Assembly: GCA_963736545.1 (NCBI GenBank)
Contig: CAVTPA010000001.1
Location: forward strand, 1,793,660 to 1,857,659
Source: an uncultured Chloroflexia bacterium
Lineage (GTDB): Bacteria; Chloroflexota; Limnocylindria; Limnocylindrales; CSP1-4
Direction: 5' to 3'
Length of the DNA stretch: 64,000 nucleotides
Under the pieces are notes generated by a model that was not told the origin of the DNA, did no database searches, and was given only the letters and a program-made list of their open reading frames with translations. A program made the translations under genes and the position numbers. Every line of letters begins with the position of its first letter. Positions within the stretch are counted from its first letter, which is position 1. Positions 10,564-43,197 of the stretch are shown piece by piece.

Positions 10564-10605
10564 CCGCGCGCCCGTAGCTCAGCGGACAGAGCATCTGACT
10601 TCGGA
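10564..10605 (+). repeat. tRNA-Arg 5'-half fragment (putative attL core), direct repeat of 43118-43159
   Basis: 42/42 identity with the region covering 4 nt upstream plus tRNA positions 1-38 (acceptor 5' strand, D-arm, anticodon stem 5' strand and the whole loop CTTCGGA). No T-arm follows it, so it is not a functional tRNA. Confidence 0.9.
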
Positions 10606-10942
10606 CCATCGGGGGGACTGCGCAGCATCCCACGCTCCCGGACGGCTGCGGATCGGCCCTTGTTATCCGCTCGGTTCGTGCACTGGATCGGCCCGACCGG
10701 TCGGGCACCCCGGGGGAGTACCGCGGCTGTGTCGTTCTATGGCTTGTTGCGCTGGGCGGATGATCGATCAGTCATGGGCGCGAGCGTCCAGGCCGACCGC
10801 GGTTCCGCATCGCCACGGCCATCCCCTTCCCATTGGACCGCGCCCTGAAGTACCCAGCGGCAACCGTCCGGCCGCTTGACCTCGTTGAGTCCCATCGCAG
10901 GGCGGCTCGCCCCGATGGCTCGGCCACCAGCAGGCGGGGCGC

Positions 10943-11884
10943 TCAGCCTGGATGCGCGGGTGCCGGACCGGCGTCGTGCTCTTGTAGGAATTGCGTCACC
11001 GTCTCTGCGTCCGGGATTTCCTCCTGACCACCGGGAGTGGCTGCCGACAGCGCCGCGGCGGCGGACGCGCGAAGCACACGCTCGGGCAGGGCGAGGCCGT
11101 CGGCGAGCGCCGAGGCGTACGCGCCGTGGAACACGTCCCCGCAGCCGTTCGTGTCGACCACGCGAGCTGGCAGCGCCGCCTGGTGCTCCGGCGCACTCGA
11201 CGCTCCCTCGAGGTACCACGAGCCGGCCGCGCCACAGGTAACCACGACGGTCCGGCCCGAGGTCCGAAGCGCTCTGGCCGCCGCCACCGGGTCCGGCTCG
11301 CCGGTCAGCGACTCCGCGAAGGCGCTCGAGAGAATGAGGTGGTCCACGAGGCCCAGCAGGTCGTCTAGGCCGGGGGCGATAGCCCCCTCGAGGTCGGCCA
11401 CGACGGCGGCGCCGGCCTGCCGCGCGACCCGCGCGGCCCGGATCGTGAGTTCGAGCCGGAAATTGTCGACGAGGAGCACTCGCGTGCTGCGCAGGAGCTC
11501 GTCCGGGAGCCAGTCCTCGTCGGGTCCGACGACTGGAGACAAGTCGTAGAAGATCGTGCGGGTGTGTTCCGCATCATCAATCACGATGAACGAGAGCACC
11601 GGCCCCGCGCCGGGGTGGACGCGGACGTGGTCGACGTTCACGCCCTTCGAACGCAGCGCGTCCAGGACGAACCGCGACGACTCGTCCTCACCCACGATGC
11701 CGGCGTATGCGGCGCGCGACCCGAGGCATGCGGCGGCGACGAGCGCTGTGGCGTTGAGGCCGCCGCTGCGGCGGACTCGTCCGAGGATCGGCACCTTTGC
11801 GTCGGCGTGCGGGTAGCGGGCGACCCGCACGAGGTCGTCGATGGCCGCCAGGCCGAGCCCCACGACGTCGAAGGCCTCACGCAT
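10943..11884 (-). CDS. PfkB-family carbohydrate kinase (ribokinase-like)
   Basis: 313 aa. N-terminal VVGLGLAAIDDL, and a C-terminal VVDTNGCGDVFHGAYA (DTxGAGD-type anion-hole motif). Confidence 0.85.
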   Translation of the reverse strand: MREAFDVVGLGLAAIDDLVRVARYPHADAKVPILGRVRRSGGLNATALVAAACLGSRAAYAGIVGEDESSRFVLDALRSKGVNVDHVRVHPGAGPVLSFIVIDDAEHTRTIFYDLSPVVGPDEDWLPDELLRSTRVLLVDNFRLELTIRAARVARQAGAAVVADLEGAIAPGLDDLLGLVDHLILSSAFAESLTGEPDPVAAARALRTSGRTVVVTCGAAGSWYLEGASSAPEHQAALPARVVDTNGCGDVFHGAYASALADGLALPERVLRASAAAALSAATPGGQEEIPDAETVTQFLQEHDAGPAPAHPG

Positions 11885-11899
11885 CTGCGTGTCCGAGTG

Positions 11900-12760
11900 T
11901 CAGCCGGGGGTCGGAGCCGACGCGGGATCGAGCACGGCCATCGACGCCTCGACGTCCCGCGTGGTCATCGCGACCGAGAGCGCGCGGACCATTCGCGCGA
12001 CATCCGGCTGCTGCCAGATGTTCCGACCCATCGTAATTCCCGCCGCGCCGGCGTTCATCGAGTCGATGACGCTCGCAATGACCGCGCGCTGGGTGTCGCG
12101 CTTCGGGCCGCCGAGGACGACGACGGGGACGGGCGAGGTTCGGACGAGCTCGGCGAAGACCTCGTTGTCGCCGCTCCACTCGACCTTGACGATGTCGGCG
12201 CCCAGCTCGATCGCGATGCGCGCCCCATCGGCGGCGACCTCGGCGCGAAGGCGCGGATCCGACGGGATCCCGACTCCCCACAGGTAGGGCTCGATCATTA
12301 GTGGGAGCTCCCAGTGGCGGCACTGCTCTCCGGCCTTCGCCAGATAGGCCTGGTTCTGCAGCTGCTCCGCCCGACTGTCCAGACCCATGATCAGCATCGT
12401 CTTCGCGGCGTCGGCGCCGAGACGCATGGCCTCCTCGACACTGAACGCCGGGGCGTGCCCGACCGCAGGCCCGACATCATGCGGATCGCGATGGATCGTC
12501 TGGTCCAAGGCCAATATGAGGCCGGGGGCGCCCCGGTGGGCGAACAGCGGCGCCGAGCGGCGCGCGAGGCCGCCGGTCAGCAGGACCCCGTCGGGCTCGG
12601 CCGCCACGACCTTGGCGACGGTCGCGAGGGGGTCCTCGAACCCCTGATTCACGCCGCCGATTCCGTGGTCCATGGCGATGATGATCGAGTACCCGCGATC
12701 GCCGCCGAGCAGGCGGCCGAGACGTCGGGTCAAGCCCTGGGATCCAGCCGGTTTCAACAC
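11900..12760 (-). CDS. class I aldolase, DhnA/FbaB/LsrF (DeoC/LacD superfamily)
   Basis: Motifs IIIAMDHG and GADIVKVEW (Schiff-base Lys context), plus a C-terminal GITMGRNIWQ. The start was set at GTG 12760, preceded by AGGAGG. The longer ORF extends to 12916. Confidence 0.8.
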   Translation of the reverse strand: MLKPAGSQGLTRRLGRLLGGDRGYSIIIAMDHGIGGVNQGFEDPLATVAKVVAAEPDGVLLTGGLARRSAPLFAHRGAPGLILALDQTIHRDPHDVGPAVGHAPAFSVEEAMRLGADAAKTMLIMGLDSRAEQLQNQAYLAKAGEQCRHWELPLMIEPYLWGVGIPSDPRLRAEVAADGARIAIELGADIVKVEWSGDNEVFAELVRTSPVPVVVLGGPKRDTQRAVIASVIDSMNAGAAGITMGRNIWQQPDVARMVRALSVAMTTRDVEASMAVLDPASAPTPG

Positions 12761-12830
12761 GCCGTTCCTCCTGCGGTCGTCCCAACGCGCCTCCGGATGA
12801 ACCGGCGACCGCGTCGCCTTCGTGGAGTCC

Positions 12831-13493
12831 TCAAACGGCGCCCCGCCGGCCGGCTCCCGTCGTCCCTGCGAGGACACGCTTGGCGACGTCCACTGCCGAG
12901 CCGGCGTCCGGCGCATAGCCGTCGGCGCCGATCTGGCCGGCGTACTCCGCCGTCACCGGCGCGCCGCCGACGATGACCTTCACGTTGCCGAGATTCGCGC
13001 TTCGGATCGCCGTCACGACGTCGCGCATCCCGACCATCGTTGTCGTGAGCAGCGCGCTGACGCCCACGAGGTGCGCGTCGTGCTCCCGTGCCGCTTCGAC
13101 GAAGCGCTCGGCGGGTCACGTTGGTCCCGAGGTCGATGACCTCGATGTTGGCGCCCTTCCACATCATCGCGACGAGGTTCTTGCCGATGTCGTGGAGGTC
13201 GCCCTTGATGGTCCCGAGGACGGCGCGTCGCCTCCGGCCGGATCCCCGCGCTCGGCGAGGACCGGCTCGAGCACGGCCATCGCCTCCTTCATCGCCCGGG
13301 CGCTGATGAGCATCTCGGGCACGTAGATCTCGCCGCGCTGGAACCGGCCGCCGATCACGTCCATCGCCGCAGTCATCGCGTCGAGGATTGCCTGGGGGTC
13401 GACGCCCGCCTCGATTGCCTGCTTCGTGTGCAGGATGGCGTTCGTCCGGTCGCCGTCCTCAATCGCTTTCGTCAGTGCTGCAAGATCCGCCAT
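12831..13493 (-). pseudogene. corrinoid (B12-binding) protein, MtaC/MetH cap+Rossmann type, with at least 2 frameshifts
   Basis: Three consecutive frames each encode part of the protein:
- the helical cap (MADLAALTKAIEDGD...EIYVPEMLISARAMK)
- the DxHxxG loop (GTIKGDLHDIGKNLVAMMWKGANIEVIDLG)
- the rest of the Rossmann domain (GVSALLTTTMVGMRDV...VIVGGAPVT). Confidence 0.75.
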
Positions 13494-13545
13494 CGTCTTC
13501 TGCTCCGTATGGGCGCATCCAGGGCGCGACATGTCCACTGCGCCG

Positions 13546-14981
13546 TCAGCGGGCCTCGTCGGGGAGGAGACCGACGAGGCCCGCTGCGGCGTGGTGGTAG
13601 GTCTTCCAGCCCATGTACGTGCCGAAGGCCTCGTCGACCGCGTCGGCCACGAGGGATCGGTTCATCGGCGACGTGGTGCTCGAAGCCGCTCCGACAGATG
13701 TGGCGCAGGAGGCTTCTGGAGCCCGGGGATCTCGACGACGGCGCGCGTGCCGTACGTGTCGAGCGGATCGTCGGTCATCCGACCCTCACCGACGTAGGCC
13801 CGGATCTCGCCCCGACGATCGTCGGTGGTGATGCGGGCGAACGTCATCGGGCCCGACGAGGCCCGCCCGTGCAGCGTCCCCCAGCTGTTGAGGAGGTCCG
13901 GCGACGCGTGCTGCCCGAAGTCGAGGTCCGGGACGAACGACTTGGCGAAGTAGCCGCAGTGCCAGAAGACGCACTTGTCGCGCTCGCGGCCGTAGTTGTT
14001 GTTCCAGTCCGCCAGCGTGCTCGCCGTGCCGGACGCGAGCTTGAGGGCGTACATCGCGACGAGGCCCGGTGACGTCGGCCTCGCACGCCGCGGGCATGAG
14101 GTTGTCGCTCATCAGGCTCATGACGCCGCACGCGCTGAAGCCGAAGTTGCGCTGCATCGAGTCCCAGCACTGGATGGCCGCCCCGCAGGCCGTTGTCCTC
14201 CATCCAGTCGTCCAGCACGACCGCGACAGCCTGGCCATCCGCAGGAGCGGCTCCTCGGGCACGCCGTCGATCGTCACGTAGGCTCCGAAGGTCCTCCAGC
14301 TTCCGCTCGACCCTCGCGTCCGATAGGGAGAGCCGCTCGACCCGTCCGAGGACGTCCGAGAGGTCGATGACGCTCACGCTGATGCCGGACGCCTCGAGGA
14401 GCTTCTCGCTGAAGCGCACGGTCCTGAACGCATCTGGTCGGGTCCCGACCATCCCCAGCCTCGCGCCGCGGAGACCGCGCACGACACGGCAGGTCGAGAC
14501 GAAGCGCCGGAGATCGTCGCCGAACTCGTGCCCGCCGGATCGACCGTGTGGACCGAGGTCAGGCTGAACGGCACCCGTACTGGGTCAGGTTGTTGCAGAC
14601 GGACACCTTGCCGCAGAAGGAATCCCGCCGCGCTCGAAGGTGAGGTTCTCGAAATCGTCCGGGAACGCGTGGACGAGGATCGGCACGTTGAGGCCGGCCA
14701 GCCGGATGGCATCGGCGATTCCCTTCTCGTCGCCGAAGTTGGGCAGCGAGACGAGGATGCCGTCGATCCGCTCGGCTTCGTCACGGAACAGGCGGGCGCA
14801 CGCTGGGCCTCCTCCCAGGTCTCGACGGCGCCGAGCCGGGTCAGGGACTCATCGGGCGCCACGACATCGACGCCGAGCTCCTCCAGGCGACGAGGAGGAC
14901 CGCACGTCCCTCGGCCACCAGGCGGGCCGGGAACCCGGAGCGATTGCCGACGATCAAGCCGAGGACTGGTCGCTCGGCCAT
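13546..14981 (-). pseudogene. L-fucose/L-arabinose isomerase-family gene, heavily frameshifted
   Basis: Family-typical segments are scattered over all three minus frames. They include [101 protein letters not shown], and MYALKLASG...WNNNYGRERDKCVFWHCG. Roughly 8 or more frame changes are needed to join them. Confidence 0.7.
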
Positions 14982-14999
14982 GTGACTGACTCCTCTGCG

Positions 15000-16167
15000 G
15001 TCGGTTGGCCAGGCGTCTCGGCGGTAGGCGGCTTGTCGGGCGGAGAGTTTGCCCTGATGGCCCGGAGCGCATCGCGGCCCACCGCGGCGCCGTCCCGGTG
15101 GTGGGTCTGCGTCCGCCCCACGGTCGCGATCGTCGGGCGGGGCACGTGCACAGGATGGTTCCCGTCCGGCGCAGCCCGGCCAGCAGGTCGGTGAAGTAGC
15201 CCCCGATGTCGAGCGGCGGTGTAGTCGCTCAGCATGAGGGCGATCCGACCCTCGAAGAGCTGCTGGGCCCGGAACACCTGCGCGAAGTCACCCATGCACC
15301 AGTTGTTGATGCCGGTGAGCCCGTCGGTCGCGAGGAAGTTCTCGAGCTGGTGCGCTGCGCTGCCGCAGTAGTGAAGGGTCCCGCCGCCGAAGGCCCGAAA
15401 GACGCGCGAGTTGTACGGCACGACGAACTGCCGGTACAGGTGCGGCGACATGATGGTGCAGTCGTCGTCCGAGATCCAGACTCCGCCGAAGCCCTCCGGC
15501 AGCACCGTGAAATGGGGGAAGGCCCCGGACTCGAGCGGCTGCCCGGCGTGCTGCTTCTGGACCTTCACCCAGTCGATGAGGACGGTGGTGCAGAAGTCCA
15601 TCAGCTCGTGGACGGCCGTCGGGTAGTCGTACATCCACAGGCTGATGGCCTCGACCCCGACGAGGTTCAGCGCGATGTTGAAGGGGCCCTGGCAATCCGT
15701 CACGGAGACCGGCAGGTCGCTGTGCGCGCGCATGTAGTCGATGCAGCGCAGGACGCGCGGCATGAGCCCGTCGCGGTACGGGTCCGGCGGAACGAGCCCG
15801 CCGACTCTCCTCGGGCTGCCCGATGATCGGCCCCCCGGACCGCCGGCTCGTCCTTGGGCTGGAACAGGATGTCGCAGCCCAGCGCCGAGGGCACGACGCC
15901 GGTGCCGTACCAGGGGAAGAGGAACGGGACGTAGTCGTCGTCGTACCGCTCCAGGTGCGCGGCGATCTTCCGGACCTGGTAGTCGACCATCGTGCCGAAC
16001 GACGCCTCGGCGAAGTAGTCGTCGGGGATCGAGCCCGGCTCCTCGCCCGTGATCGAGTAGTTGACGTCCTGGATCACGATCGCCGGATCGTCGATGTCCA
16101 GGTGCCGGTACGCGGCGTCGACCCGCTCGGTGGCGCGAGCGAAGCGGGCACGGTTGGCGGCATCCAT
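15000..16167 (-). pseudogene. URO-D/MtaA-family protein, frameshifted (3' end approximate)
   Basis: The N-terminal part (MDAANRARFARATERV...FLFPWYGTGVVPSALGCDILF) is in one frame. The core (MPRVLRCIDYMRAH...GGTLHYCGSAAHQLENF...) is in another. A further shift occurs near the C-terminus. Confidence 0.6.
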
Positions 16168-16261
16168 CAGCGTCAGCACGTCGAGTCTCCGTCCCCTGGT
16201 GTCGCGCTCGCCGCAGGGCATCCTGCGTGTCGGCTCCGGCGGGCTGCCACACCGGTCTCTC

Positions 16262-17416: not shown

Positions 17417-17474
17417 GGCTGGTTCCCGAGTGGCCAGACTGGACGCCTGATCCCCAACATGCCCACGACAAGCA

Positions 17475-17503
17475 TTGACAGCATAGCTATGACAGCATAC
17501 GAT
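17475..17503 (+). promoter_or_regulatory. candidate sigma70-type promoter with an embedded palindromic operator
   Basis: TTGACA (17475-17480), a 17-bp spacer, then TACGAT (17498-17503), reading toward the ABC transporter genes. The spacer contains the perfect 10-bp palindrome CATAGCTATG (17482-17491) and the direct repeat GACAGCATA x2. The region is locally AT-rich and lies between divergent lacI and the substrate-binding-protein gene. Confidence 0.4.
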
Positions 17504-17606
17504 TGCGCCGCTCTTTCGTCAAGGCTGGAAGCAGCATGAGGCGCGCATGAGCTGACTCAATTGACGGTCCATCCGGAGGGGGACAGTCCGATTGGTAGGA
17601 GGAGCT

Positions 17607-18629: not shown

Positions 18630-18650
18630 GAGCGTCGGAGTCATCGACTG

Positions 18651-19443
18651 ATGGCACTCGCCGCTGACACCGGCGACCAAGCGAAGGGAGCGGAGTCCGA
18701 GAAGCTCCTCGGACTCCGCTCAGTTTCCAAGTCGTACGGATATATTCAGGCCTTGTCCGACGTCGATTTCGACCTCGGGCCTGGGGAGATCGTCGCCCTC
18801 GTTGGGGACAACGGCGCCGGCAAGTCGACGATCGTGAAGATCCTCTCGGGCGTCATCACCCCCGACACCGGCGACGATCCTGGTGCATGGCCGCGAGACG
18901 GTCTTCGCAAGCCCGCACGACGCGTACTCGCGCGGGACGTTCACCGTGTTCCAGGACCTTGCGCTCGTCGAGGCTCTCGACGTGGGGCGCAACGTCTTCC
19001 TCGGTCGCGAGCCCTCGCGTTTCGGGCTGGTCCGACGCCGGCAGCTGGACCGCGAGGCGCTCGCGGTCTTCACGACGTTTGGCATCAAGGTCCCGTCCAT
19101 GGGCCGGACCGTCGCCCTGCTGTCCGGCGGCCAGCGGCAGGGCGTGGCCATCGCACGGGCAATCCTCCGCGGTGCATCTGCTGTCATCATGGACGAGCCG
19201 ACCGCGGCACTGGGCGTGCGCGAGACCGCCCACGTCCTGGACATCATGCGTCAGCTTAGAGATCAGGGGCGCGGCGTCCTCGTCGTCAGCCACAACCTCG
19301 ATCTCGTGTTTGATGTCGCCGACCGGATCCAAGTGCTCAGGCTGGGACGCACGGCCGGGATTCGCCAGACCTCGAACACCACGCACGCCGAGATCGTCCA
19401 CCTCATCATGGGCGTCGAAGGCACGAACGGAGCGGGCGCATGA
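18651..19443 (+). pseudogene. ABC transporter ATP-binding protein (single NBD) with one frameshift near 18876
   Basis: Walker [10 protein letters not shown] is in frame 0. The Q-loop, signature LSGGQRQG, Walker [11 protein letters not shown] and H-loop SHNL are in frame +1. The junction reads ...ITPDTGD / [10 protein letters not shown]. The span is 793 nt (3n+1). This could be an assembly indel. Confidence 0.8.
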
Positions 19444-20566: not shown

Positions 20567-21691
20567 ATGAACGCAACGCCGCTCGGGGTGGGGATGATTG
20601 GCTACGGCTTCATGGGCCGGGCGCACAGCAACGCCTACGAGCTCGTCAAGCGCACGTTCGGCGCCGAGACTCCTCAAACCGATTTGGTCAGCCTCGCCGG
20701 CCGTGACGCAGCCGCGGTTGCTGCGGCCGCGTCACGGTTTGGATTCCGTCGACACGAGACCGACTGGCACCGAACAGTCACGGATCCGGATGTCGCCCTG
20801 GTGAACGTGTGCGCGTGGCACGACGTGCACGCCGAGGCGTCGATCGAGGCCGCGAGTTGCGGACGACACGTGGTGTGCGAGAAGCCGATGTCGCTCGACG
20901 TCGACGAGGCGCGTCGAATGCGCGATGCGGCCGTCGCGGCGGGGATCGTCCACCGCGTCGCGTTCAACTACCGGTTTGCGCCGGCCGTGGTGATGGCTCG
21001 CCGGTTGATCGCCGACGGGGCGCTCGGGCGGATCCATCGCGTCCGCATCAGCTACCTGATCGGCGGCCTCGCCTCCTCCACGATCCCCTGGTACTGGGAC
21101 GACCGGGTATCCGGCGTCCTGCTCAACCTCGGCTCGCACGTCATCGATATGGCGCGCTACCTCGTCGGGGAGCCATCGGTCGTCTCCGGACGCATGAGCA
21201 GGGGGTTCCCCGAGCGGCCGCTCCGTGGCGATCCTGGGACGCTCGCGCCGATCGAGGCCGACGATGGAGTCGTCGCGGCGGTCGAGTTCGCCAGCGGCGC
21301 TCTCGGGTGCCTCGAGGCATCATGGCTCTGCTCCGGGCGGAACAACCAGTTCTCGTTCGAGATCAACGGCTCGGACGGAGCGGTCACCTGGGACCTCGAG
21401 CGGCTCAACTGGCTGGGCGTCTATCGGCGCGGCGGGCGCGGCTTCGAAGACGTCTTGGTGACCGGCACGGACGATCCACTGATGCGCGGCTGGTGGCCGC
21501 CCGGCCACCAGCTCGGGTGGGAGCACCTCCACGCCAACCTTATGCACGAATTCCTGCTCGCCGTCGCGGGGACACCGATGCGTGACGTCGTCGGTGCCTC
21601 GTTCGAGGATGGCTATCGTGTCGCGGTTGTCTCGGCGGCCATCCATGAGGCGAGCCGGACGGGCCGAACGGTCCAGGTGGCGGACGCATGA
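20567..21691 (+). CDS. Gfo/Idh/MocA-family oxidoreductase
   Basis: 374 aa. N-terminal Rossmann GVGMIGYGFMGRAH, and EKP motif VVCEKPMS. Confidence 0.9.
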   Translation: MNATPLGVGMIGYGFMGRAHSNAYELVKRTFGAETPQTDLVSLAGRDAAAVAAAASRFGFRRHETDWHRTVTDPDVALVNVCAWHDVHAEASIEAASCGRHVVCEKPMSLDVDEARRMRDAAVAAGIVHRVAFNYRFAPAVVMARRLIADGALGRIHRVRISYLIGGLASSTIPWYWDDRVSGVLLNLGSHVIDMARYLVGEPSVVSGRMSRGFPERPLRGDPGTLAPIEADDGVVAAVEFASGALGCLEASWLCSGRNNQFSFEINGSDGAVTWDLERLNWLGVYRRGGRGFEDVLVTGTDDPLMRGWWPPGHQLGWEHLHANLMHEFLLAVAGTPMRDVVGASFEDGYRVAVVSAAIHEASRTGRTVQVADA

Positions 21692-21704
21692 GAGACCGCG
21701 GACG

Positions 21705-26463: not shown

Positions 26464-27474
26464 ATGGAGACCAAGCGCCAGGTGGTTCGCGCCGTGTTCG
26501 CGGGTGAACGGCCGCCGTACGTGCCCTGGCACGTCGCCTTCACCGCGGAGGCGAAGGCGCGGCTGCTGGAGCACCTGGGGCCGTGCGACTTGGAGCAGGC
26601 GCTGGACAACCACATGCTCATGCTCCGGCGCTCGACCGGCTCGATCACTGACCTCGGCGGCGGCCGCGTCCAGGACCTATTTGGCGTCGTGTGGAACCGG
26701 ACGATCGACAAGGACATCGGCTTTCCCGAGGGCCTCGTCCTGGCCGAGCCGACGCTCCATGATTGGCATCCTCCCGACCCTCTCAACCCTCGGTTCTACC
26801 TCAACTGGGACCGGCAGATCGCCGGAGGCAGCGATCGCTATCGCGTCTTCTCGGCCAGCTTCTCACTGTACGAGCGGGCGTGGTCCATGCGCGGCCTCGA
26901 GAACCTGATGCTCGACTTCTATGACCATCCGGCGTTCGTTCACGAGCTGTTGGATGCCCTGGCGGATTTCAACCTCGCCCAGGTGCGCGAGGCGCTCAAG
27001 TACGACATCGACGCCGTCTACTTCGGCGACGACTGGGGCCAGCAGCACGGCCTCCAGATGGGCCGGCGGCACTGGGATGCGTTCATCAGACCGCGGCTCG
27101 CGCGAATGTACCGGGAGGTACGCGAGGCCGGGAAGGCCGTGATGATCCACTCTTGTGGCGCCGTGGACGAGCTGTTCGATGAGCTGATCGCGCTCGGCCT
27201 CAACTGCTTCAACCCGTTCCAGCCTGAGGTCATGGACGTGGATGACGTCTTCCGCCGGTATCACGGCCGGCTGTCGTTCTTCGGCGGCCTGTCGACACAG
27301 CGGACGCTCCCGTTCGGGTCGGTCGAGGACGTCCAGCGGGAGACGGCCCACCTGCTTGATCTGGGGCGTGATGGCAGCTATGTGTTCGCCACAGGGCACG
27401 CGGTCGAGGGTGACGTCCCGCTCGAGAACATGCTGGCCTTCATCGACACCGTGCGGGCGCAGCGTGCGCAATGA
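26464..27474 (+). CDS. uroporphyrinogen decarboxylase (URO-D/MtaA) family protein
   Basis: 336 aa. RAVFAGERPPYVPWH, YFGDDWGQQHGLQMG, and an MtaA-like H-x-C-G motif IHSCG. SD GGAGA lies before the ATG. Confidence 0.8.
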   Translation: METKRQVVRAVFAGERPPYVPWHVAFTAEAKARLLEHLGPCDLEQALDNHMLMLRRSTGSITDLGGGRVQDLFGVVWNRTIDKDIGFPEGLVLAEPTLHDWHPPDPLNPRFYLNWDRQIAGGSDRYRVFSASFSLYERAWSMRGLENLMLDFYDHPAFVHELLDALADFNLAQVREALKYDIDAVYFGDDWGQQHGLQMGRRHWDAFIRPRLARMYREVREAGKAVMIHSCGAVDELFDELIALGLNCFNPFQPEVMDVDDVFRRYHGRLSFFGGLSTQRTLPFGSVEDVQRETAHLLDLGRDGSYVFATGHAVEGDVPLENMLAFIDTVRAQRAQ

Positions 27475-27513
27475 TCGAGCGCCCGGATGCCGCGCCGGCG
27501 AGGGAGGCTGACA
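27370..27513 (+). repeat. 144-bp direct repeat, left copy (3' end of the URO-D gene plus the first 14 codons of the next gene)
   Basis: 141/144 identical to 29433-29576. The three mismatches all lie in the first 35 bp. Confidence 0.95.
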
Positions 27514-29432: not shown

Positions 29433-29576
29433 GATGGCAGTTACGTGTTCGCCACAGGGCACGCCGTCGAGGGTGACGTCCCGCTCGAGAACATGCTGGC
29501 CTTCATCGACACCGTGCGGGCGCAGCGTGCGCAATGATCGAGCGCCCGGATGCCGCGCCGGCGAGGGAGGCTGACA
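29433..29576 (+). repeat. 144-bp direct repeat, right copy
   Basis: Encodes an orphan ...DGSYVFATGHAVEGDVPLENMLAFIDTVRAQRAQ* gene tail followed by MIERPDAAPAREAD. Similarity then stops. Confidence 0.95.
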
Positions 29577-31554: not shown

Positions 31555-31555
31555 G

Positions 31556-32983
31556 TCAGTGCAGGGAGGGATAGCGCTGCTCGAGGGCCTGCACGAGGGC
31601 ATCGAGGCGCCGGTCCCGTGCCACGGCCATCAGCGCCCGCGCGTGGTCGGTCGCCGGAACCTCGGCGAGCGCCCCGGTCCGGTGAACGTCGAGCGCCTCC
31701 ACCATGGCCTCCGCCCCGAGGCGCGGATCGGGCCGTCCCGAGGAGCCCTTGATGGAGTTGATCGCGGACCCGGCCAGGAACAGCACCTGGTCGAGGATGC
31801 CGCGGTCCTCCGCGTCGCGCAGGTTCAGCCCGATGTTCCCCTGGTCGAGGCCGCCTGCCCGGACGATCGTCGTCGGGCGGATTCCTGCCAGCGGCGCGGT
31901 CAGGATGGCCTCCGAGGCCCGCCACTCCGCGCCGGACGGTCGCAGGAAGGGTTGGCCGGGCAGGACCGGTGCGGTCTGGCGGAAGTCGATCCCGTCGAGC
32001 CGCGCGAGGAGATCGACGACCTCCCGCCAGATGGCGCGCGTGCGGACGCCGACGCCGGCGTTGTGCCCGTAGATGGCAACGGGCTCCCCGGACGCGGCCA
32101 GGTGGTCGCGCACCATCCGCACGCCGCCGAGCACCCAGCTCTCGCTGAACATCACCCCGCGCGCTCCCGCCCCCCGTGCCGTGTCGACATTGGCGATCAG
32201 CTCGCCGGGCGCGGCCGTGACGTGAGGGGCGAACAGGAGCGTCTCGGACCGGCCGGGACGTTGACGTTCAATGGCCTCGATGGCCAAGCGAGTCCGTTCG
32301 GCCAGGGGGCAGTACGGAAGATTGGGATAGAGGTTCTCGTCCTCCTTCACGAAGGAGAAGAGGTCGACGGCGGCAATGTCGGCGACCAGGTCCCGCTCCT
32401 GGGTCGGCACCAGGCCGGCGGTCGGCTTGAGGATCGTCCCAAAGGCGGGCCGGCCCGCCTCCAGGCGCACGTGCGAGCGGAAGCCGGCAGCTCCGAGGGC
32501 CGGGCCCGGGAACGTCCGCAGGACACGTGGTGGGATGTCCAGCGCCACGAGACGCACATCCTGGGCCTCGGACACGTCGAAGATGATCGCCCCGGCCACC
32601 GTGTGGAGGATATCGGTGCTCGTGACATGCCCGTCGGTTTGGCACAGCATCTTCAATGGATAGGCCATGTGAAGGAGGCCGATCCGCCCGGTCGAATCGA
32701 AGGGCACGACGCCGGATGCCGAGCCCGTGCACTCCGCCAAGAGCGACCCGGCCGGTGGGTGGCGGGTGCCGCTCGTCGCGTGATACGCGATCTCCTCGGC
32801 GAACCCCGCCAGTGACTGCGAACGGAGTGCCAGGAAGTACGTGGCGGTAACGGCGTCATCTGCCGCGGGCGGAGGGTTCTCGGCCAGCACGTCGCTGATC
32901 ACGCGGCGCAGCAACGCCTCTCGCTCGTCCAGGTCGGCCCAGAGGAGCTCCACGGTGTCGGCACCGATGCGGGGAAGTGTCAT
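31556..32983 (-). CDS. RuBisCO-like protein (form IV RLP)
   Basis: 475 aa. IAYHATSGT, GTILKPTAGL (KPK to KPT), and FVKEDEN (carbamyl-Lys plus the acidic Mg ligands are retained). HxHRxxH is replaced by YGHNAGV, and the GGG loop is replaced by AGSAINS. Confidence 0.8.
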   Translation of the reverse strand: MTLPRIGADTVELLWADLDEREALLRRVISDVLAENPPPAADDAVTATYFLALRSQSLAGFAEEIAYHATSGTRHPPAGSLLAECTGSASGVVPFDSTGRIGLLHMAYPLKMLCQTDGHVTSTDILHTVAGAIIFDVSEAQDVRLVALDIPPRVLRTFPGPALGAAGFRSHVRLEAGRPAFGTILKPTAGLVPTQERDLVADIAAVDLFSFVKEDENLYPNLPYCPLAERTRLAIEAIERQRPGRSETLLFAPHVTAAPGELIANVDTARGAGARGVMFSESWVLGGVRMVRDHLAASGEPVAIYGHNAGVGVRTRAIWREVVDLLARLDGIDFRQTAPVLPGQPFLRPSGAEWRASEAILTAPLAGIRPTTIVRAGGLDQGNIGLNLRDAEDRGILDQVLFLAGSAINSIKGSSGRPDPRLGAEAMVEALDVHRTGALAEVPATDHARALMAVARDRRLDALVQALEQRYPSLH

Positions 32984-33385: not shown

Positions 33386-33400
33386 TGATCGACTCCCTCC

Positions 33401-34387: not shown

Positions 34388-34390
34388 AGC

Positions 34391-35380: not shown

Positions 35381-35381
35381 G

Positions 35382-36012
35382 TCAACCCGAGATGTCCGAG
35401 CGGGACTGGATGGCCTTCTTGAGCTCATCGGCGATGGCATGGCAGATCGCCATGTGGACGTCCTCGACGTGCACCATCTTCCAGGATGGGACGACGACGC
35501 AGATGTCGGCGACGTCCTTGGCCTTGCCCCCGCCCTTCCCGGAGAGGCAGATCGTCGTGGCGCCCAGCGAACGCGCGACATCGAACGCGTTCAGGACGTT
35601 CTGGCTGTTCCCGGAACCGCTGATCCCGATGAGGACGTCACCGGCCTCGCACCAGTTCTTCACCTGCTCACTGAAGACGTACTCGTACCCCATGTCGTTG
35701 GCGGCGGCGGTGATGAATGACACGGAGTCATTGAGGCACAGCGTCTTGAAGCGCTGGTCGCTCACTACCGCGGTCTTGGCGTCATTGGAGATCGTGTGCT
35801 TGGCCAGATCGTTGATGATGTGCGCATGCGGTGCTCCCGTGGCCTCCGTTCCCCATCGTCAGGACCTTCTTCCCCTGGCGTTGAGCCTCGAGGAGCACCT
35901 CCACGATCCGGGCGAGTTGCTCGTTGTCGAGCTCCTGGAGCGTCGCGGCGAGGAGCTTCATGTAGTCGGCGAAGCCTTGGGCGATGGCTGGCGTGGTTCC
36001 GATCGTCGGCAT
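35382..36012 (-). pseudogene. SIS-domain sugar-phosphate isomerase (GmhA-like), frameshift near 35826
   Basis: MPTIGTT...KKVLTMGNGGHGSTA is in one frame. AHIINDLAKHTISNDAKTAVVSDQRFKTLCL...GISGSGNSQNV follows in the next frame. The span is 631 nt (3n+1), consistent with a single-base insertion, which could be an assembly indel. Confidence 0.7.
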
Positions 36013-36073
36013 GGTCAGGTCCTCTGAGGTGCGCTTCAATTCGATCGACAGGGCTGGTCGAAGGTGCGGTGGG

Positions 36074-37000
36074 TCACGTGTGCGCCCAGCGGTACAGGTG
36101 CTCCCGGAGCGGGTCGCCGGCGAGGCCATGCGCCGCCAGGAGCTGTGCCGGGCGCCCGGATTCCCCGAACACATCGTTAATGGCGATCCGTTCGATCCGG
36201 TGGACGACATCGCGCTCGTCGAGGACCATCGAGAGCCCGTCGGCGAGACCGCCGTGGGTGTTGTGCTCCTCGACGACCGCCACCCGGCGGCCGACGAGGG
36301 CGTCGACGATGGCGCGATCGAGCGGCTTCAGCCGGCTCACGCCCAGCACGGTCAGGCGGATGCCCTCCTGCGCCAGGGCATCGACTGCCGCAACGACGTC
36401 GGATGAAGAGGTGCCGGTCGTGACGACGACGCCTGCGTCCCCATCGCGCAGGCGGTGGTACGCGGGGAGCGGCCCGGGCAATTCATCGACGACGGGAAGC
36501 GTCGCCGGTCGGGAGAGCCGGACATACGTCGGGCCATGGACAGCGAACACCTCGGCGAGGACGGCCCGCAGGTCCCACGCGTCGAGCGGGGCGTAGACGC
36601 GGATGTTCGGGATGGCCTGCATGATCCCGAGGTCCTCGACGGCCTGCTGTGTCGCACCGTCCTCGCCGAGCCCGATGCCGGCGTGGAAGCCGAACAGCTT
36701 GACGTTCAGGTTCGGATACGCCACGGAGACGGCGATCTGGTCCGCCGCCCGCCGGGTCAGAAACGAAGCGAAGCTGTTGACGGCCGGCATCCCGCCCCCG
36801 AGCGCAATTCCCGCGGCCATGGCGACCATGTTCTGTTCGGCGATCCCCACGTTCAGATAGCGTTCTGGGAAGCGCTCGCGGAACCCAGCCGAACGGGTCG
36901 ACGTTGCCAGGTCCGCGTCGAGGACGACCAGATTGGGGTACTGCGCGCCGAGCTCGGGCATCGCGGCACCGTAGGCGTCGCGGAGGGCGACGGCCTTCAT
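36074..37000 (-). CDS. transketolase, C-terminal (Pyr + C-terminal domain) subunit
   Basis: 308 aa from MKAVALRDAYG, with NVGIAEQNMVAMAAG. ATGA overlap with the N-terminal subunit gene. Confidence 0.9.
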   Translation of the reverse strand: MKAVALRDAYGAAMPELGAQYPNLVVLDADLATSTRSAGFRERFPERYLNVGIAEQNMVAMAAGIALGGGMPAVNSFASFLTRRAADQIAVSVAYPNLNVKLFGFHAGIGLGEDGATQQAVEDLGIMQAIPNIRVYAPLDAWDLRAVLAEVFAVHGPTYVRLSRPATLPVVDELPGPLPAYHRLRDGDAGVVVTTGTSSSDVVAAVDALAQEGIRLTVLGVSRLKPLDRAIVDALVGRRVAVVEEHNTHGGLADGLSMVLDERDVVHRIERIAINDVFGESGRPAQLLAAHGLAGDPLREHLYRWAHT

Positions 37001-37858
37001 CGCGCCGCCTCCCCGTGTCCGAGGGCCTTCAGCTCGGTGACGGCCGCCTCGTACTGCGTGTCGTCCAGGGCATGGCTGTGCCACTCGCGACGACCCTCCA
37101 TGAAGGAGACCCCTTTCCCTTTGGTGGTGTGCGCGATGACGACATGCGGCCCTCGGTCCGGCTCGCTGCGGACCCAGTCGATGGCCCCGACGAGGTCCTC
37201 GATGTCGTTGCCGTCGATCTCGCGCGTCTGCCAGCCGAACGCCGCGAATTTGGCGGCATACGGCCGAAGATCGAGGATGTCCTCGACCCGCCCATCGTTC
37301 TGCATCTCGTTGGCATCGACGATCGCGACCAGCCCGTGGAGCGGGTGCGCGCCGGCGAACGCGATGGCTTCCCACGTGTTGCCCGAGATCAAGCTCGCCG
37401 TCGCCCAAGACGACGTACACGATCGTCGGCTTCGCGCGCGTGGCCAGCCACCAGGCGAGCCCGCAGCCGACGGACAGGCCCTGGCCGAGCGACCCGGTGG
37501 ACATCTCGACCTCGGGCAGACGGGTTCGGTCCGGATGCCCCTGGAGGCGGGAACCGAACTGGCGCAAGGTCGTGAGCTCGGCGGCCGGGATGACACCGAC
37601 GCCGGCCAGCGCGGCATAGAGCGCGGGAGCCGCGTGACCCTTCGACAGGATCACATGGTCGCGGACCTCCGTAGGTGTGCCGAGCTTGGCGGGATCGGTG
37701 GCGTATCCGAAGAGCACCGCAAGGATGTCGGCGCACGAGAGGCTGCCCCCAGGGTGACCCGAGCCGGCCGCCTTGATCTGGAGCAGCACATCGAGCCGGA
37801 TCTGCCTGGCGAGCTCCGTCAGGCGCTCGACCGGCGCTGCCTGCGTGTGAACAGTCAT
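36997..37858 (-). pseudogene. transketolase, N-terminal (ThDP-binding) subunit, frameshift near 37380
   Basis: MTVHTQAAP...GSGHPGGSLS...SKGHAAPALYA...VVLGDGEL is in one frame. TWEAIAFAGAHPLHGLVAIVDANEMQNDG...HTTKGKGVSFME is in the next. The span is 862 nt (3n+1). Confidence 0.8.
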
Positions 37859-38836
37859 GGCTTCCTCTGCCCTGTGCGGGGTCTGCCCGCGCGCCCCTGG
37901 CTCCCCGGGAGCACCTTGACGGTGTTGAGGATCTCGTCGATCGACTGCGCCCGACCGAGGCGCTTGGGATCGGCAAGCGCCAGACAGTGGAACAGGACGT
38001 CCGAGAGCATCATCTGCAGGAGGCGGGTGAGGGCCGCGTCGTTGCCGAACAGCCCCACGCCCGGTGGCGTCGAAAGGGAGACCTCGACGGCGCGTGCCAG
38101 CGGCGACAGCGGGTCCCCGGTGAGGGCGATGGTGTGGGCTCCCCGCTCGGACGCGATGCGGGCCGCCCTCAGGTCCAGGTCGGTGCGCCCCGAGTACGAC
38201 ACCAGGACAACTGCGTCTTCGGGTCCCACCAGCGACGCGTAGGCGAGCTGGGTGTGCGCGTCCTCGGAGTACTGAACGCTCAGCCCGAGTCGAAGGAGCC
38301 GATGGTGCATGTCCATCGCGACCATCGACGACAGGCCGGCGCCAACCGGGACGATGCGGCGCGCGCGGTCGAGGATGGCGACCACTCGCCGCAGGCGGTC
38401 GTCCACCAGAAGCATCTGGCCGAAGGCGACGGTCCGGGACGAGACCGACCCGAAGAATCTTCGTCGCGACGACCTCGGGCTCGTCGGTGAGAAGGATGGC
38501 AGGGTCGAGGGCGTTGCCCTCGCTACCAGCGGCCAGGTTGAGTCCGCGCTCGCGCGCGAGCGACCGCTTCAGTTGTCCGAAGCCAGCAAAACCCAAGCGG
38601 CGAGCAAGACGGTCAATCGTCGATCGACTTGTATCGGATTGGATGGCCACCTGCGGAGCGGTGACCAAGCCCCGTTCCGCCTCGGGAATGGACAGCAGGT
38701 ACGCAATGATGCGCTGGTCCGCTCGCGACATCGGCATCGAGGCGAGGCGGCCGAGAAGCGTTCCGCCCTTATCTTGGTTGGGCCGGTCGTCACTTGAGAC
38801 GTCTTGCGTCACACGGGATGACACAACTAGCTCCAT
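37855..38836 (-). pseudogene. RpiR/MurR-family regulator (HTH_6 + SIS), frameshift near 38460
   Basis: The HTH part (RIIAYLLS...RSTIDRLARRLGFAGFGQLKRSL) is in the frame of the 1015-aa ORF. The SIS part (RIVPVGAGLSSMVAMDMHHRL...VSYSGRT) is in ORF 37855..38415. The span is 982 nt (3n+1). The TGA overlaps the transketolase ATG. Confidence 0.75.
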
Positions 38837-39618
38837 AGGCTCACAAACCGCACTCGTGTTGGTACGTAACGTATCAACTTTCGACGCCCGGGTCAATCCC
38901 CAGATCCCGTGCGCCCGAGGCGAAGGCCGGAGCCGAGCACACGATCGGATGGGCCGAGACGAGCTCTCTGCCGCTCTGCGAGGCCGACTCCCTCGACGAT
39001 CTCGAGGCCAGTGCGACGCCTGGGCCCGAAGACGTGGCCTGGGCGCCGGCACGCCGGCTCGCGACCGGCACGCCGCGGAACGACCGTATCGCGTCGCGCT
39101 CGCCGAGCCGCGCCCCGACACGGACCTTCATCTCAAGGCGCGAGCCGGCAGTACGCCTTCGTCCGGGTGCTCTCGGTCGACTACCCGGTCCCTCCGGCCT
39201 TCGCCGGGCGGCGCATCGGGGCCCGGGTGAGCCCGGCGACGGTGCGCCTCTTGTGCGAGGGAGCGAGGTCGCCCGGCACCGCCGCAGCTTCGCCCTCGCG
39301 GATGTCGTCCTCAACCCGACGCACGGCCGGGCGATCCGCCTCGCCCGGGAGGCCGCCTCCGGGACGGGGGCCTAAGCTGCCGGCGCTCGGCCTCGCCCGG
39401 CACGACGCCTGGGAGGTGCCGGCATGTCCGGCTCACGCTGACACGCAACGTCGACTTCGAGCATCACGCGGGGCCGATGCATCCGCAACTGGCGCGGTCG
39501 CGCAGGGCTCCGAGCGGTACCGGCGCGGTCAGCACGAGGAAGACACCGTCGGCGGCAGCCTGCACTGCCTTGTCCGCCGTCAGGAGGCCCACGTCGGGGG
39601 CGCTGGAGTCCCGTGAGC

Positions 39619-41019: not shown

Positions 41020-42062
41020 CGTCGCGCAACCCGGGCGGTCGCGGCAGGCGCGCGGCTTGTTACCGGGCGACTGACGAGGTCAGGCGCGCGCTGGCTACCG
41101 CGTCGAGTCCGGACTACGCAATCGTATGCGTCCCTCGGGCACGATGTCGGAGGCCGATGCACCGGGCGCGATCCGTCCGATCTCTCGAAAGCGCGGCGCC
41201 TTGGCGTTCACCGAGATCCTGCGGACCGCTTCCGTCGTCGAAGCCATCGGTGCCCGTGTGCTCGGTCGCGACGTCACGCACATGCGGAAGCTAACGTAGG
41301 TCTGCTGTGTGAGCCGAGGCGGGGATCGCCAGCAGGCGTACCTCCGCCGCCAGCGGCTCGTCGTCCATGGCCTCAACGCGCCGCTGACCGATGCCCGCTC
41401 GGGTCGCTGGTTCCTACGTTCGGGTGCACGAACCTAGTGCGAGCGTCCGCATCCCGGCGGCGTGGGGCGTCGGTCCTCCCTGGAGGGCGTCGGCCCCCGC
41501 AGGGGCCGCTCTCGGCGACCAGCTTCGCAAGCTCGGCGCCATCCTGCCGCCGCTCGTCGCCCCATGTCGGGGCCCTCGGCTGCGCCGCCGACAGTGCGGG
41601 GTGCATGGGGCGGGGGTGACACTCGGCGGTGTCCTGCGCGACGCGTGCGCGCGGAGGTCCCGGGTGGGCCACGACGGCCGCAGGGAGGGCTCCCGGCGGA
41701 GGACGTGGCGCCGGGCGTGTTGGCGCAGAATGAGTGGATAATGCGGTGCCTTCTACCGCGCCGAGCGCGCGCGCTCATGATCGTGGAGCCTGCGACCAGT
41801 GAGCTCGGAGCGAGGCGATGCTTACCTGTCATCCGCCCAGTCCACGGTCAACGACGAGCTGTCGGCTCGGCGGCCGGCCGGGCTTGGCCTGGCCGATCAC
41901 CTCCATGCGCTCGGGGTCGGCCGGGGGGCCGGCGGGTCGCTCGCCTGGGCGCCAGACAAGAGGGCCGGCCTCCCGCGTTTTCAGGGGCGTCGCCCGCAGA
42001 CAACTTGATGTGGCCGAGCGGTTTCCTGCATGGCGGAGCCGCGCAGTAGAGCATGGCGGGGC

Positions 42063-43013
42063 TCACAGCCTGTCGGCCGGGTTGAGCCGCCGGCTCGCTG
42101 CGATCGCGCGATCCGATGCCGTGGCGCGTGCGTATCTCGACAGCATCTCGCGGGACTTCCAGCCAGCCAGCGCCATCGTGTCGCCCTCGCTCACGCCGGC
42201 CGAGAGCACCCCGTGCGCCCAGCTGTGCCGGAGAAGGTGGGGATGGAGCCCGGGCAGCCCGGCCTGGTCGCCACGTCGGCGGACCATCTGCGCGATGCCG
42301 GATACGGTCATCGGTCCCCGCTCCCCGAGCCACAGGGCCGGCGAGTCGGCGTGCGCGTGCCGGCCCCGCAGGCGGAGGTAGCGGTCAACGGCCTTCGCGG
42401 CCTTCGCGCCCATGTGGACGACCCGCGGGCGGCGACCCTTGCCGAGCACGTGGAACGTCTGCGCGTCGAGGTCAACGTCGTTCGTCTCGGGATCGCCCGG
42501 AGTCCAGCGGAGTCCGGTGACTTCCGCGAGCCGGGCGCCGGTGCCGATGAAGGTCCGCAGGATGGCCGCGTCGCGGCGGTCCTCGTAGCCGGTGCCGGCG
42601 CACGTCGCGAGGAGGCGGCGCAGCTCGTCCTCGCTGAGCACCTTGGGCGGCTCGTCGGGGACCTTCGGCGGGCGCATCTTCGCCATCGGGCTCGTGGTGA
42701 TCTCGCCCTCCTCCACGGCCCACTTGAAGAACTGCTGCAAGCTCCGGTAGCGGTTCGTCGCGGTCGCCGGCCGAGAGTCGGTGAGCAGCCGCTCGATCCA
42801 CGCCTCGACGTGCTCGCGCTTGATGTTCGCGACGTCGGTCGGCATCCCGCAGGCCGCGAGGAACCGGGAGAAGCCGGCGATGGCCTCGGCGTAGGTCTGG
42901 ATGGTCCGGGGCGCGAGGTTCGACGCGCGAAGGTGGCGCGCCCAGCTCGCGGCGTTGCCGCCCAGGTCGCCCGGGGTTGCTACGATGGGCGGTGTGGAAA
43001 CGGCTTGCGGCAT
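42063..43013 (-). CDS. tyrosine recombinase / integrase (XerC/D-like)
   Basis: 316 aa. N-terminal SAM-like core-binding domain (RTIQTYAEAIAGFSRFL). The catalytic region has GARLAEV (Arg I), HLLRHSWAH (H-x-x-R ... H), and SRYAR (Tyr). Confidence 0.9.
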   Translation of the reverse strand: MPQAVSTPPIVATPGDLGGNAASWARHLRASNLAPRTIQTYAEAIAGFSRFLAACGMPTDVANIKREHVEAWIERLLTDSRPATATNRYRSLQQFFKWAVEEGEITTSPMAKMRPPKVPDEPPKVLSEDELRRLLATCAGTGYEDRRDAAILRTFIGTGARLAEVTGLRWTPGDPETNDVDLDAQTFHVLGKGRRPRVVHMGAKAAKAVDRYLRLRGRHAHADSPALWLGERGPMTVSGIAQMVRRRGDQAGLPGLHPHLLRHSWAHGVLSAGVSEGDTMALAGWKSREMLSRYARATASDRAIAASRRLNPADRL

Positions 43014-43117
43014 CGTTCACGGGCTCCAGATGGGGGATCTAGTCGCCCTCCATTATACGCTGAGTGAGCGCAGCATCAAGCCCGTTTCCACAGTCATCCG
43101 CTCAATCTGAGCGTAGA

Positions 43118-43159
43118 CCGCGCGCCCGTAGCTCAGCGGACAGAGCATCTGACTTCGGA
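43118..43159 (+). repeat. right copy of the 42-bp direct repeat (putative attR core), inside the intact tRNA-Arg
   Basis: Identical to 10564-10605. Confidence 0.9.
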
Positions 43160-43197
43160 TCAGACGGTCGGGGGTTCGAATCCCTCCGGGCGCGCCA
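43122..43197 (+). tRNA. tRNA-Arg (anticodon TCG), CCA encoded
   Basis: Hand-folded:
- acceptor GCGCCCG / CGGGCGC
- D-arm GCTC-AGCGGACA-GAGC
- anticodon arm TCTGA-CTTCGGA-TCAGA
- variable loop CGGTC
- T-arm GGGGG-TTCGAAT-CCCTC
- discriminator G, then CCA. Confidence 0.9.

Follow-up and report, generated by a model that had tools for sequence, protein, structure and literature searches.

The window analysed here is a 64,000-nucleotide stretch of the genome of an uncultured Chloroflexia bacterium (GenBank assembly GCA_963736545.1, contig CAVTPA010000001.1, positions 1,793,660 to 1,857,659), and all coordinates given below are positions within it. It contains a 32.6-kb segment that is enclosed by two copies of the 5′ half of a tRNA-Arg(TCG) gene and carries, next to its right-hand end, a gene for a tyrosine integrase (int; Table 1). 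The two copies form a perfect direct repeat (42/42 identity; E = 6e-19 in a blastn-short search within the window) that consists of CCGC followed by tRNA positions 1–38. Identity ends with the last base of the anticodon loop, CTTCGGA, after which the tRNA copy continues with TCAGA and the left copy with CCATC. No third or degenerate copy of the repeat was found in the 64 kb, and there are neither internal remnants of attachment (att) sites nor tandem elements. ARAGORN predicts a single tRNA in the window, the tRNA-Arg(TCG) gene at the right-hand repeat (Rfam score of 70.8 bits), and makes no call at the left copy. A preliminary description of this DNA, made from the sequence alone, had reported the same repeat ending at the anticodon loop, with the right copy belonging to an intact gene and the left copy a dead fragment, and every coordinate is correct. 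The segment shows an Islander-type signature, with an intact tRNA gene (tDNA), a cognate 5′ fragment (positions 1–38) upstream on the same strand and a tyrosine integrase inside; as the identity block ends at tRNA position 38, the sublocation is the anticodon loop (‘A’).

The integrase has a complete R-K-H-R-W-Y catalytic set, which is invariant across an alignment of 24 sequences, and it matches the integrase family phrog_1 with E = 2e-48. About 22 residues precede the SAM-like core-binding and catalytic domains, and a lambda-type N-terminal arm-binding domain is missing. The best matches of known structure are XerD, XerA and gp33 of Brujita (PDB code 5vfz), the nearest phage integrases are from actinophages (36–39% identity) and the database holds more than 4500 homologues. 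Scores of 151.8 and 141.4 bits against the NCBIfam equivalogs for XerC and XerD, with cut-offs of 335.15 and 329.6 bits, respectively, establish that the protein is not an XerC or XerD orthologue. Its gene is under purifying selection (a dN/dS ratio of nonsynonymous to synonymous changes of 0.11 in comparison with the 92%-identical integrase of locus L108). It starts 104 bp from the right repeat, close to the 100 bp estimated at first, and its transcription is directed away from the tRNA gene.

Metagenome contigs were scanned for unoccupied sites with a pattern comprising the native upstream sequence TACGATG, a gap of 6–11 nt and the tRNA through the 3′ anticodon stem. Seventeen contigs matched. 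In ten of these, a thioesterase gene (83–88% amino-acid identity to the product of 10031–10501 in the window) adjoins an intact tRNA-Arg gene without an integrase between them, and CTGCGCTACGATG is kept upstream of the tRNA in these relatives. Thioesterase, native promoter and intact tRNA-Arg are adjacent; the preliminary description had suggested looking for a thioesterase followed by an intact tRNA-Arg. A reconstructed attB (10470–10605 joined to 43160–43300) is collinear with the empty-site contigs over the thioesterase start, CTGCGCTACGATG and the whole tRNA, and left-flank synteny continues through the cytochrome bd genes (cydAB; 79–89% amino-acid identity). None of the island genes lies nearby in the empty-site relatives. 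To the right of tRNA-Arg, the DNA differs in every relative. Base composition, which had been named as another check, also distinguishes the island (68.5% GC) from its left and right flanks (74.8 and 71.0%), as does GC at third codon positions (GC3; 0.863 versus 0.956 and 0.907; Mann–Whitney p = 2e-5).

A second occupant of the same tRNA-Arg gene is seen in loci L003–L010, in which the integrase is 81% identical to that of the window and tRNA-Arg(TCG) lies 109 bp upstream of int in divergent orientation. L003 and L006 contain a second copy of tRNA positions −1 to 38 (a 40-bp 5′-half repeat) exactly 9473 bp away, and in L005 the matching thioesterase gene is found beyond the displaced tRNA copy. 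These 9.4-kb elements share no gene with the window island except int. Nevertheless, the approximately 75 bp inside the left repeat of the window (the P′ arm) are about 70% identical to the far ends of L003, L005 and L006, with perfect blocks of 21 and 11 nt, and the spacer between int and the tRNA gene (the P arm) aligns along its full length with the spacers of L003-type elements. Both edges of the 32.6-kb segment are therefore arms of an attachment site that belongs to a single element family, since the left end and the spacer are homologous to the ends of the 9.4-kb elements. The tRNA-Arg locus is marked as a recombination hot spot.

We conclude, with a probability of roughly 0.88, that 10606–43117 together with one 42-bp core is an integrated island whose Xer-like integrase used the anticodon loop of tRNA-Arg(UCG) and replaced the 5′ half of the gene. 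The integrase would have recombined an element attP, in the order P arm, tRNA positions −4 to 38 and P′ arm, with the chromosomal gene by strand exchange within the 7-nt anticodon loop. The host 5′ half with its TACGAT promoter was pushed 32.5 kb upstream (attL), and the 5′ half of the element, with the region preceding it, was joined to the host 3′ half (attR) to give an intact gene. Displacement of the host half and rebuilding of the gene can be read from the sequence and from the comparison with relatives; from attL and attR it can be deduced that the attP carried the 5′ part of the tRNA gene, with a predicted junction of ...GAGCGTAGACCGC + tRNA 1–38 + CCATCGGGGGG.... In related elements, the 5′ tRNA half is identical and the 3′ half differs from host to host. 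TACGAT is a putative promoter element, identified by its position and its TANNNT form.

Table 1. Features of the island and its boundaries (positions in the 64-kb window)
Feature	Position	Strand	Remarks
Putative native tRNA-Arg promoter −10 (TACGAT)	10553–10558	+	9 nt before the displaced 5′ half; now orphaned and directed into the island
attL core, displaced host CCGC + tRNA-Arg positions 1–38	10564–10605	+	42/42 identity; dead fragment without 3′ half
P′ arm	10606–10680	+	Motif A (GCGCAGCATC, 10620–10629); motif B (TTATCCGCT, 10663–10671)
Cargo, mosaic carbohydrate/methyl-transfer catabolic cluster	10943–41019		Pfam and NCBIfam assignments
Transposase remnant (Mu-transposase C-terminal domain fragment)	38909–39616	+	27.8 bits, E = 2e-6; no coding signature (GC-position analysis)
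Non-coding-looking backbone remnant	41411–41987	−	72% identical to L108 6081–6824; indels not multiples of 3
Stump of the gene found after int in all close relatives (its first 35 codons)	41950–42054	−	tblastn and blastn against L108
Tyrosine integrase, 316 residues, Xer-like, arm-less	42063–43013	−	Phage_integrase catalytic and SAM-like core-binding domains
P arm (int–tRNA spacer)	43014–43117		int promoter; motif B (TTATACGCT, 43053–43061); motif A (43068–43077); palindrome
attR core, CCGC + tRNA positions 1–38, supplied by the element	43118–43159	+	Probable crossover region, anticodon loop 43153–43159
Reconstituted tRNA-Arg(TCG)	43122–43197	+	5′ half from the element, 3′ half (43160–43197) from the host

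The arms themselves contain conserved motifs. Two short sequences recurring in the same order near both ends of the island had been put forward as possible arm-type integrase sites; their coordinates are correct and the arms do hold conserved blocks, but as isolated 8–10-mers they fall within chance expectation (GCGCAGCATC with at most one mismatch gives 21 matches against 13.6 expected). The right-hand ATCCGCTC (43096–43103) is really the left half of a palindrome, CGCTC-AATCT-GAGCG (43099–43113), that lies shortly upstream of the tRNA +1 and is kept across the Arg-TCG clade as CGCTC-N5-GAGCG, with compensatory changes (TGCTC..GAGCA in L019 and L041). A better motif, TTATMCRCT, occurs three times in the window against 0.12 expected, and all three sites are associated with the element: one in each arm and one in the backbone remnant (41733–41741, minus strand).

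In 14 of 17 elements, motifs A and B occur at matching distances in the P′ arm regardless of the target tRNA, with motif A (GCG(C/G)TGTGC-like) about 15 nt and motif B ((A)GTTATNNGCT) about 60 nt from the core. The P arms hold both motifs as well, in the order B, A, core. Within one element, motif A changes in step on the two sides: it reads CAGCATC in each arm of the window island and CCATGG in each arm of L056. A promoter scan detected a sigma70-like int promoter on the minus strand of the P arm, formed by TTGATG (43079–43074), 16 nt and TATAAT (43057–43052). Motifs A and B coincide there with the −35 and −10 of this promoter, making the two roles inseparable, and they were rejected as simple arm sites. 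The P′ arm also contains a terminator-like hairpin at 10644–10672 (GGCTGCGGATCGGCC then CTTGTTATCC), downstream of the orphaned tRNA promoter and overlapping motif B (one such site against 0.1 expected).

One genome per species was scanned by integrase alignment, giving 80 loci at 51–63% identity, nearly all from metagenome-assembled genomes (MAGs) of Chloroflexota and Actinomycetota. Together with further family contigs, and limited to loci with enough upstream sequence, these make up a set of 82. A tRNA gene lies 65–200 bp upstream of int in every one of the 82 loci, and the targets include Arg, Thr, Ala, Pro, Val, Gly, Lys, Gln, Phe, Asn and His tRNAs. The two genes are divergent, with the tRNA 5′ end towards int (reversed polarity), in 68 loci and co-directional (conventional polarity) in 14; L090, one of the conventional members, has the same tRNA as the window island. 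Within the 10 kb of available flank to which the repeat search was confined, 16 divergent loci repeat tRNA positions about 1 to 37–42 exactly, which delimits elements of 2.6–10.4 kb, and four co-directional loci carry positions 28–32 to 76 a second time. Because the anticodon loop is the sole segment common to both kinds of repeat, we infer that strand exchange takes place within it, as for the classical anticodon-loop integrases. Target tRNA and polarity track the integrase clades in a neighbour-joining tree. There, the window integrase is part of a coherent Arg-TCG clade of reversed polarity, and the members of conventional polarity make up two nested groups. The suggestion that the integrase would be placed in an anticodon-loop-specific family is borne out, as is the broader claim of an anticodon-loop-targeting element that supplies the tRNA's 5′ half, for which the empty sites, the second occupant and the reversed majority all speak.

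A circular form is represented in the family by L112 (IMGVR_UViG_3300042818_000027), a 9828-bp contig with a 127-bp terminal overlap that corresponds to a circular 9.7-kb element. Its attP, upstream of int and on the opposite strand, consists of a P arm, a 37-nt 5′ half of tRNA-Met(CAT) ending at the anticodon loop and a P′ arm; both arms carry the family motifs and ARAGORN finds no tRNA in this attP. L113 and L114 have the same arrangement with a tRNA-Gly half. The circular attP junction that the preliminary description had anticipated is thus seen in a family member, with the 5′ tRNA half only, and not for the window island. The genes of L112 encode an HK97-type capsid protein, an HNH nuclease and a tape-measure-like protein in addition to the family integrase, and the element looks like a capsid-encoding phage satellite. 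Since it encodes these proteins, the integrase family serves satellite- or phage-like elements as well.

The 3′ side of several of these tRNA genes is also occupied. A duplicated 3′ part of the tRNA is found on the other side in L043 (1453–1509), L055 (7607–7634), L003 (19–47), L004 (3693–3721) and L060 (4862–4907), loci in which a single tRNA therefore has a reversed island at its 5′ side and a conventional island at its 3′ side. In L001, genes for DndB, a methyltransferase and a serine recombinase lie past the tRNA 3′ end. The displaced tRNA fragment of L005 has already acquired one substitution. In the window, a 15-nt exact copy of the tRNA-Arg 3′ end (CCTCCGGGCGCGCCA; compare 43183–43197) occurs on the same strand at 61597–61611, in an intergenic gap and ending at CCA; we estimate the probability of such a chance match at about 0.004. 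An old island of conventional polarity spanning 43198–61611 (18.4 kb, no integrase) could have left it as a displaced 3′ fragment, and the right flank is the side of tRNA-Arg that varies among relatives.

The cargo includes genes for PfkB, DeoC, a corrinoid protein, three URO-D/MtaA-like methyltransferases, LacI and a sugar ATP-binding cassette (ABC) transporter, as well as for oxidoreductases, two short-chain dehydrogenases/reductases (SDRs), a phosphofructokinase, a DUF2090 aldolase, a RuBisCO-like protein, E1 alpha/beta subunits with a lipoyl protein, a split transketolase, SIS proteins and a 451-residue glucuronate-isomerase-like protein. Its initial characterization as purely metabolic and regulatory agrees with the Pfam and NCBIfam assignments except for the transposase remnant. 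Several genes are interrupted, namely those for the corrinoid protein (12867–13493, double frameshift), a URO-D methyltransferase (15047–16173), an ABC ATPase (18651–19443), the transketolase N subunit (36997–38000) and a fucose-isomerase-like protein (13662–15072); they are either pseudogenes or assembly indels. In other bacteria, the gene for the 451-residue protein lies in chromosomal clusters, followed directly by URO-D, corrinoid-protein and URO-D genes. Orthologues that are contiguous in the chromosomal cluster of L140 are scattered in the window at 39.6, 15–16, 13 and 26.5 kb.

Two further features of the cargo deserve mention. A 144-bp direct repeat (98% identical; 27370–27513 and 29433–29576) surrounds a 2.06-kb module of low GC content (about 61%) with two SDR genes. 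The URO-D gene 26464–27474 has its 3′ end in the first copy, and the last 33 residues of that gene are still encoded by the second; the module looks like an insertion with target duplication. The RuBisCO-like protein gives weak matches to 3-oxo-isoapionate-4-phosphate decarboxylase that are far below the family cut-offs, and it co-occurs with the split transketolase, SIS isomerases and a GFO/IDH/MocA oxidoreductase (31556–32983, 36074–37617 and 20567–21691). The gene content hints at a pathway for branched-chain (apiose-like) sugars alongside corrinoid-dependent demethylation.

Little is left of the backbone that accompanies the integrase elsewhere. In L108, int is followed by a 135-residue gene, an 84-residue gene, a 516-residue AAA_25 protein and small open reading frames (ORFs), and other relatives have an equivalent module with an AAA_25 or MTBMA_p00010-like protein and no Tra. 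The match between the window and L108 runs through int into the following gene for 35 codons (to 42007), beyond which about 4.9 kb of L108 are jumped. Because the match skips from this stump to the non-coding-looking remnant at 41411–41987, the island backbone has been deleted (the 4.9 kb of L108, including the AAA_25 protein). The remnant shares perfectly conserved blocks and a GGCCCCTGCGGGGGCC hairpin with L108, and has been kept next to int although the remaining backbone is lost. It may represent a regulatory region, an origin region or an RNA, and an Rfam search of this int-proximal non-coding DNA returned nothing but the tRNA. A 466-residue ORF next to the remnant was considered as a counterpart of the relatives' replication protein and discarded, having no similarity to it, being glucuronate-isomerase-like and belonging to chromosomal sugar clusters elsewhere. 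Also rejected was a cointegrate, in which an int–attP module had inserted between an ancestral PfkB–isomerase pair of a circular catabolic replicon, since PfkB of the window is only 43% identical to the isomerase-adjacent PfkB of L140. The island ORFs include no FtsK/SpoIIIE-type Tra, no relaxase with a type IV secretion system and no replication module, which sets the island apart from integrative and conjugative elements and their actinomycete counterparts. It would seem to be a stripped-down derivative of a family of 3–10-kb plasmid-, satellite- or defence-type elements, in which the neighbouring gene of int has been lost along with the replication-type module and about 30 kb of rearranged catabolic genes, scarred by insertion sequences (ISs), have taken their place. 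Such an island is probably non-autonomous and, if mobile at present, would at best be excisable with Int alone or with help in trans.

Integration on the 5′ side raises the question of how the rebuilt gene is transcribed, as the need to keep the host promoter is the usual explanation for why tRNA genes are almost universally used on their 3′ side. The dead fragment has retained the native −10, and upstream of the rebuilt gene lies element DNA, from which the gene would have to be transcribed. Of the promoter supply that the preliminary description proposed, displacement of the native promoter is seen in the sequence, and a replacement on the element is putative. A candidate tRNA-directed −10 of TANNNT form, TACGCT (43056–43061), is placed back to back with that of int; it is kept in 14 of 15 Arg-TCG spacers. 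The 5′ half of the element is a flawless tRNA half that pairs with the host 3′ halves in every family member, and for this reason it argues that the gene is meant to work. At the other end, the last two genes of L003, L005 and L006 (DUF2283 and an 83-residue partner; 8710–9185 in L005) are oriented like the orphaned host tRNA promoter, which could switch them on upon integration.

Several observations weigh against the interpretation as an island that was delivered by its integrase. No excised form or second copy of the 32.6-kb island was found, with a look-up index that lacks the genome of the window, and a scan of IMG/VR viral contigs for an attP junction of the Arg-TCG clade was negative. 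No recombination directionality factor or transfer gene could be recognized and none of the cargo genes is common to the other family members examined, so that the cargo may never have moved together with the integrase; its frameshifts could be sequencing errors. A sigma70 consensus scan of the spacer gives no convincing promoter towards the tRNA, and conservation of TACGCT is restricted to the Arg-TCG clade and absent from other clades, for which reason it was rejected as a family-wide tRNA-directed −10.

It is unlikely, although several of these points would suit it, that a small int–att element at tRNA-Arg merely trapped host DNA, with the 30-kb catabolic block of the lineage entering later through ISs or recombination to leave a fixed, dead composite whose cargo never travelled with the element. 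The backbone is gone, with int and the arms alone left, a transposase remnant is present and none of the other family elements examined has the cargo; its orthologues are chromosomal in other bacteria and scrambled here, and its GC content is just moderately lower than that of the flanks. However, neither arms nor cores are damaged, the 42-bp repeats have remained identical and int is under purifying selection. Moreover, the difference in GC3 between the cargo and each flank is significant and the empty-site relatives lack these genes nearby. Such a history would in any case alter the origin of the cargo and not the nature of the boundaries.

We also consider it improbable that the element brought no promoter and that the hybrid tRNA-Arg(UCG) is poorly expressed or silent, its codons being covered by other Arg isoacceptors and the reversed polarity simply tolerated. 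In high-GC bacteria, CGA and CGG are readable by tRNAs with ICG and CCG anticodons, and such dispensability would agree with the lack of a sigma70-type promoter facing the tRNA in the spacer, where the sequence beside the tRNA +1 is a conserved palindrome or arm motif instead of a −10. The family-wide perfect pairing of the 5′ half with host 3′ halves nevertheless implies selection for a working gene, many different tRNAs are targeted and TACGCT is retained across the Arg-TCG spacers. For archaeal pTN3-like elements, expression of the recombinant tRNA is reported to start from the region of the integrase promoter (PMC8371274). A third alternative, that a chance or duplicated tRNA fragment lies beside 32 kb of ancestral synteny with a housekeeping XerC/D, fits the JGI annotation of the family members as XerC/XerD and the metabolic cargo but can be dismissed given the empty sites and the alternative occupant at tRNA-Arg, integrase scores less than half of the XerC and XerD cut-offs, a tRNA adjacent to int in all 82 family loci, the circular attP of L112 and the E-value of the repeat.

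The preferred reading, that of an island integrated in the anticodon loop, has implications beyond this genome. On a single integrase scaffold, the family unites dozens of naturally occurring members of either polarity, all presumably crossing over in the anticodon loop. It could be used, by comparison and by experiment, to learn what an element has to provide in place of a tRNA promoter, how easily polarity flips at a symmetric core site and whether current island finders under-count such elements. In the source genome, the island reading marks 30 kb of catabolic genes as horizontally delivered. Tentatively, and with more doubt than confidence, we suggest that the integrases constitute a very large arm-less Xer-like clade in which replacement of the 5′ half and promoter is the default, that polarity has flipped at least twice and that Islander-type pipelines may miss these elements, the window island among them, through their Xer filter. 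If so, such elements would routinely put host tRNA genes under element-borne control, exerted by a bidirectional int/tRNA promoter region and the conserved palindrome at tRNA −23 to −9, and would leave an orphaned host tRNA promoter reading into their far end.

Integration on the 5′ side has precedents. The polarity was called unusual in the preliminary description, and it is rare but not unprecedented: Islander lists 159 islands with a 5′ tDNA fragment against 3760 with a 3′ fragment (about 4% of 3919), and places 2083 of the 3919 in the anticodon-loop (‘A’) sublocation (PMC4383910). A review describes 5′ recombination as ‘considerably less frequent’ (PMC6563490), and reviews cite Zhao & Williams (2002) and the archaeal pTN3 for the use of 5′ tRNA sequence. 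Islander filters out Xer-like integrases by design (PMC4383910), on account of which the present family may be under-represented in it. The window island therefore adds one member to a known kind. Beyond it, the comparisons point to a large and mostly reversed family with internal polarity flips, a conserved arm architecture and a circular attP form, a clade-level picture that is provisional.

Among the known systems, the closest are the 5′-fragment islands themselves. The Mesorhizobium loti element of Zhao and Williams (J Bacteriol 184:859) is said to have a displaced 5′ tDNA fragment. Like the window island, that element and those in Islander have a tyrosine integrase, an unbroken tRNA at one end and, upstream at the other, a displaced 5′ fragment, the 5′ part of the gene and what precedes it being replaced by the element; the present family differs in being annotated as XerC/XerD and in having hosts among Chloroflexota and Actinomycetota MAGs. 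Gp33 of Brujita and XerC, XerD and XerA resemble the window integrase in consisting of two domains without a lambda-type arm-binding domain. The window integrase is, however, not orthologous to XerC or XerD, and its att arms, with conserved motifs about 70 bp either side of the core, are unlike the minimal Brujita system. The pTN3-like elements of Thermococcales plasmids and viruses likewise use the tRNA gene's 5′ half, which is reported to be their attB (Cossu et al., 2017, via PMC8371274), and restore an intact gene; their integrase is of the archaeal SSV-type ‘suicidal’ kind, with a gene that is split on integration, whereas that of the window is bacterial, Xer-like and intact at 104 bp from the core. 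The mycobacteriophages with tRNA-dependent lysogeny, in Actinobacteria, also depart from the restoration of the 3′ end at tRNA attB sites, but in their case no tRNA is rebuilt and a complete replacement gene comes with the phage, unlike the window gene, which is rebuilt from an element-borne half (PMC10865867). With the classical anticodon-loop islands (Williams, 2002), the window island shares its presumed crossover in the 7-nt loop, the stem as inverted core sites and an int gene beside the tRNA. The classical attP holds the 3′ part (about 28–76) and the host promoter is kept, in contrast to an attP with positions 1–38 in the window island, and 14 of the 82 members of its own integrase family use the classical conventional form.

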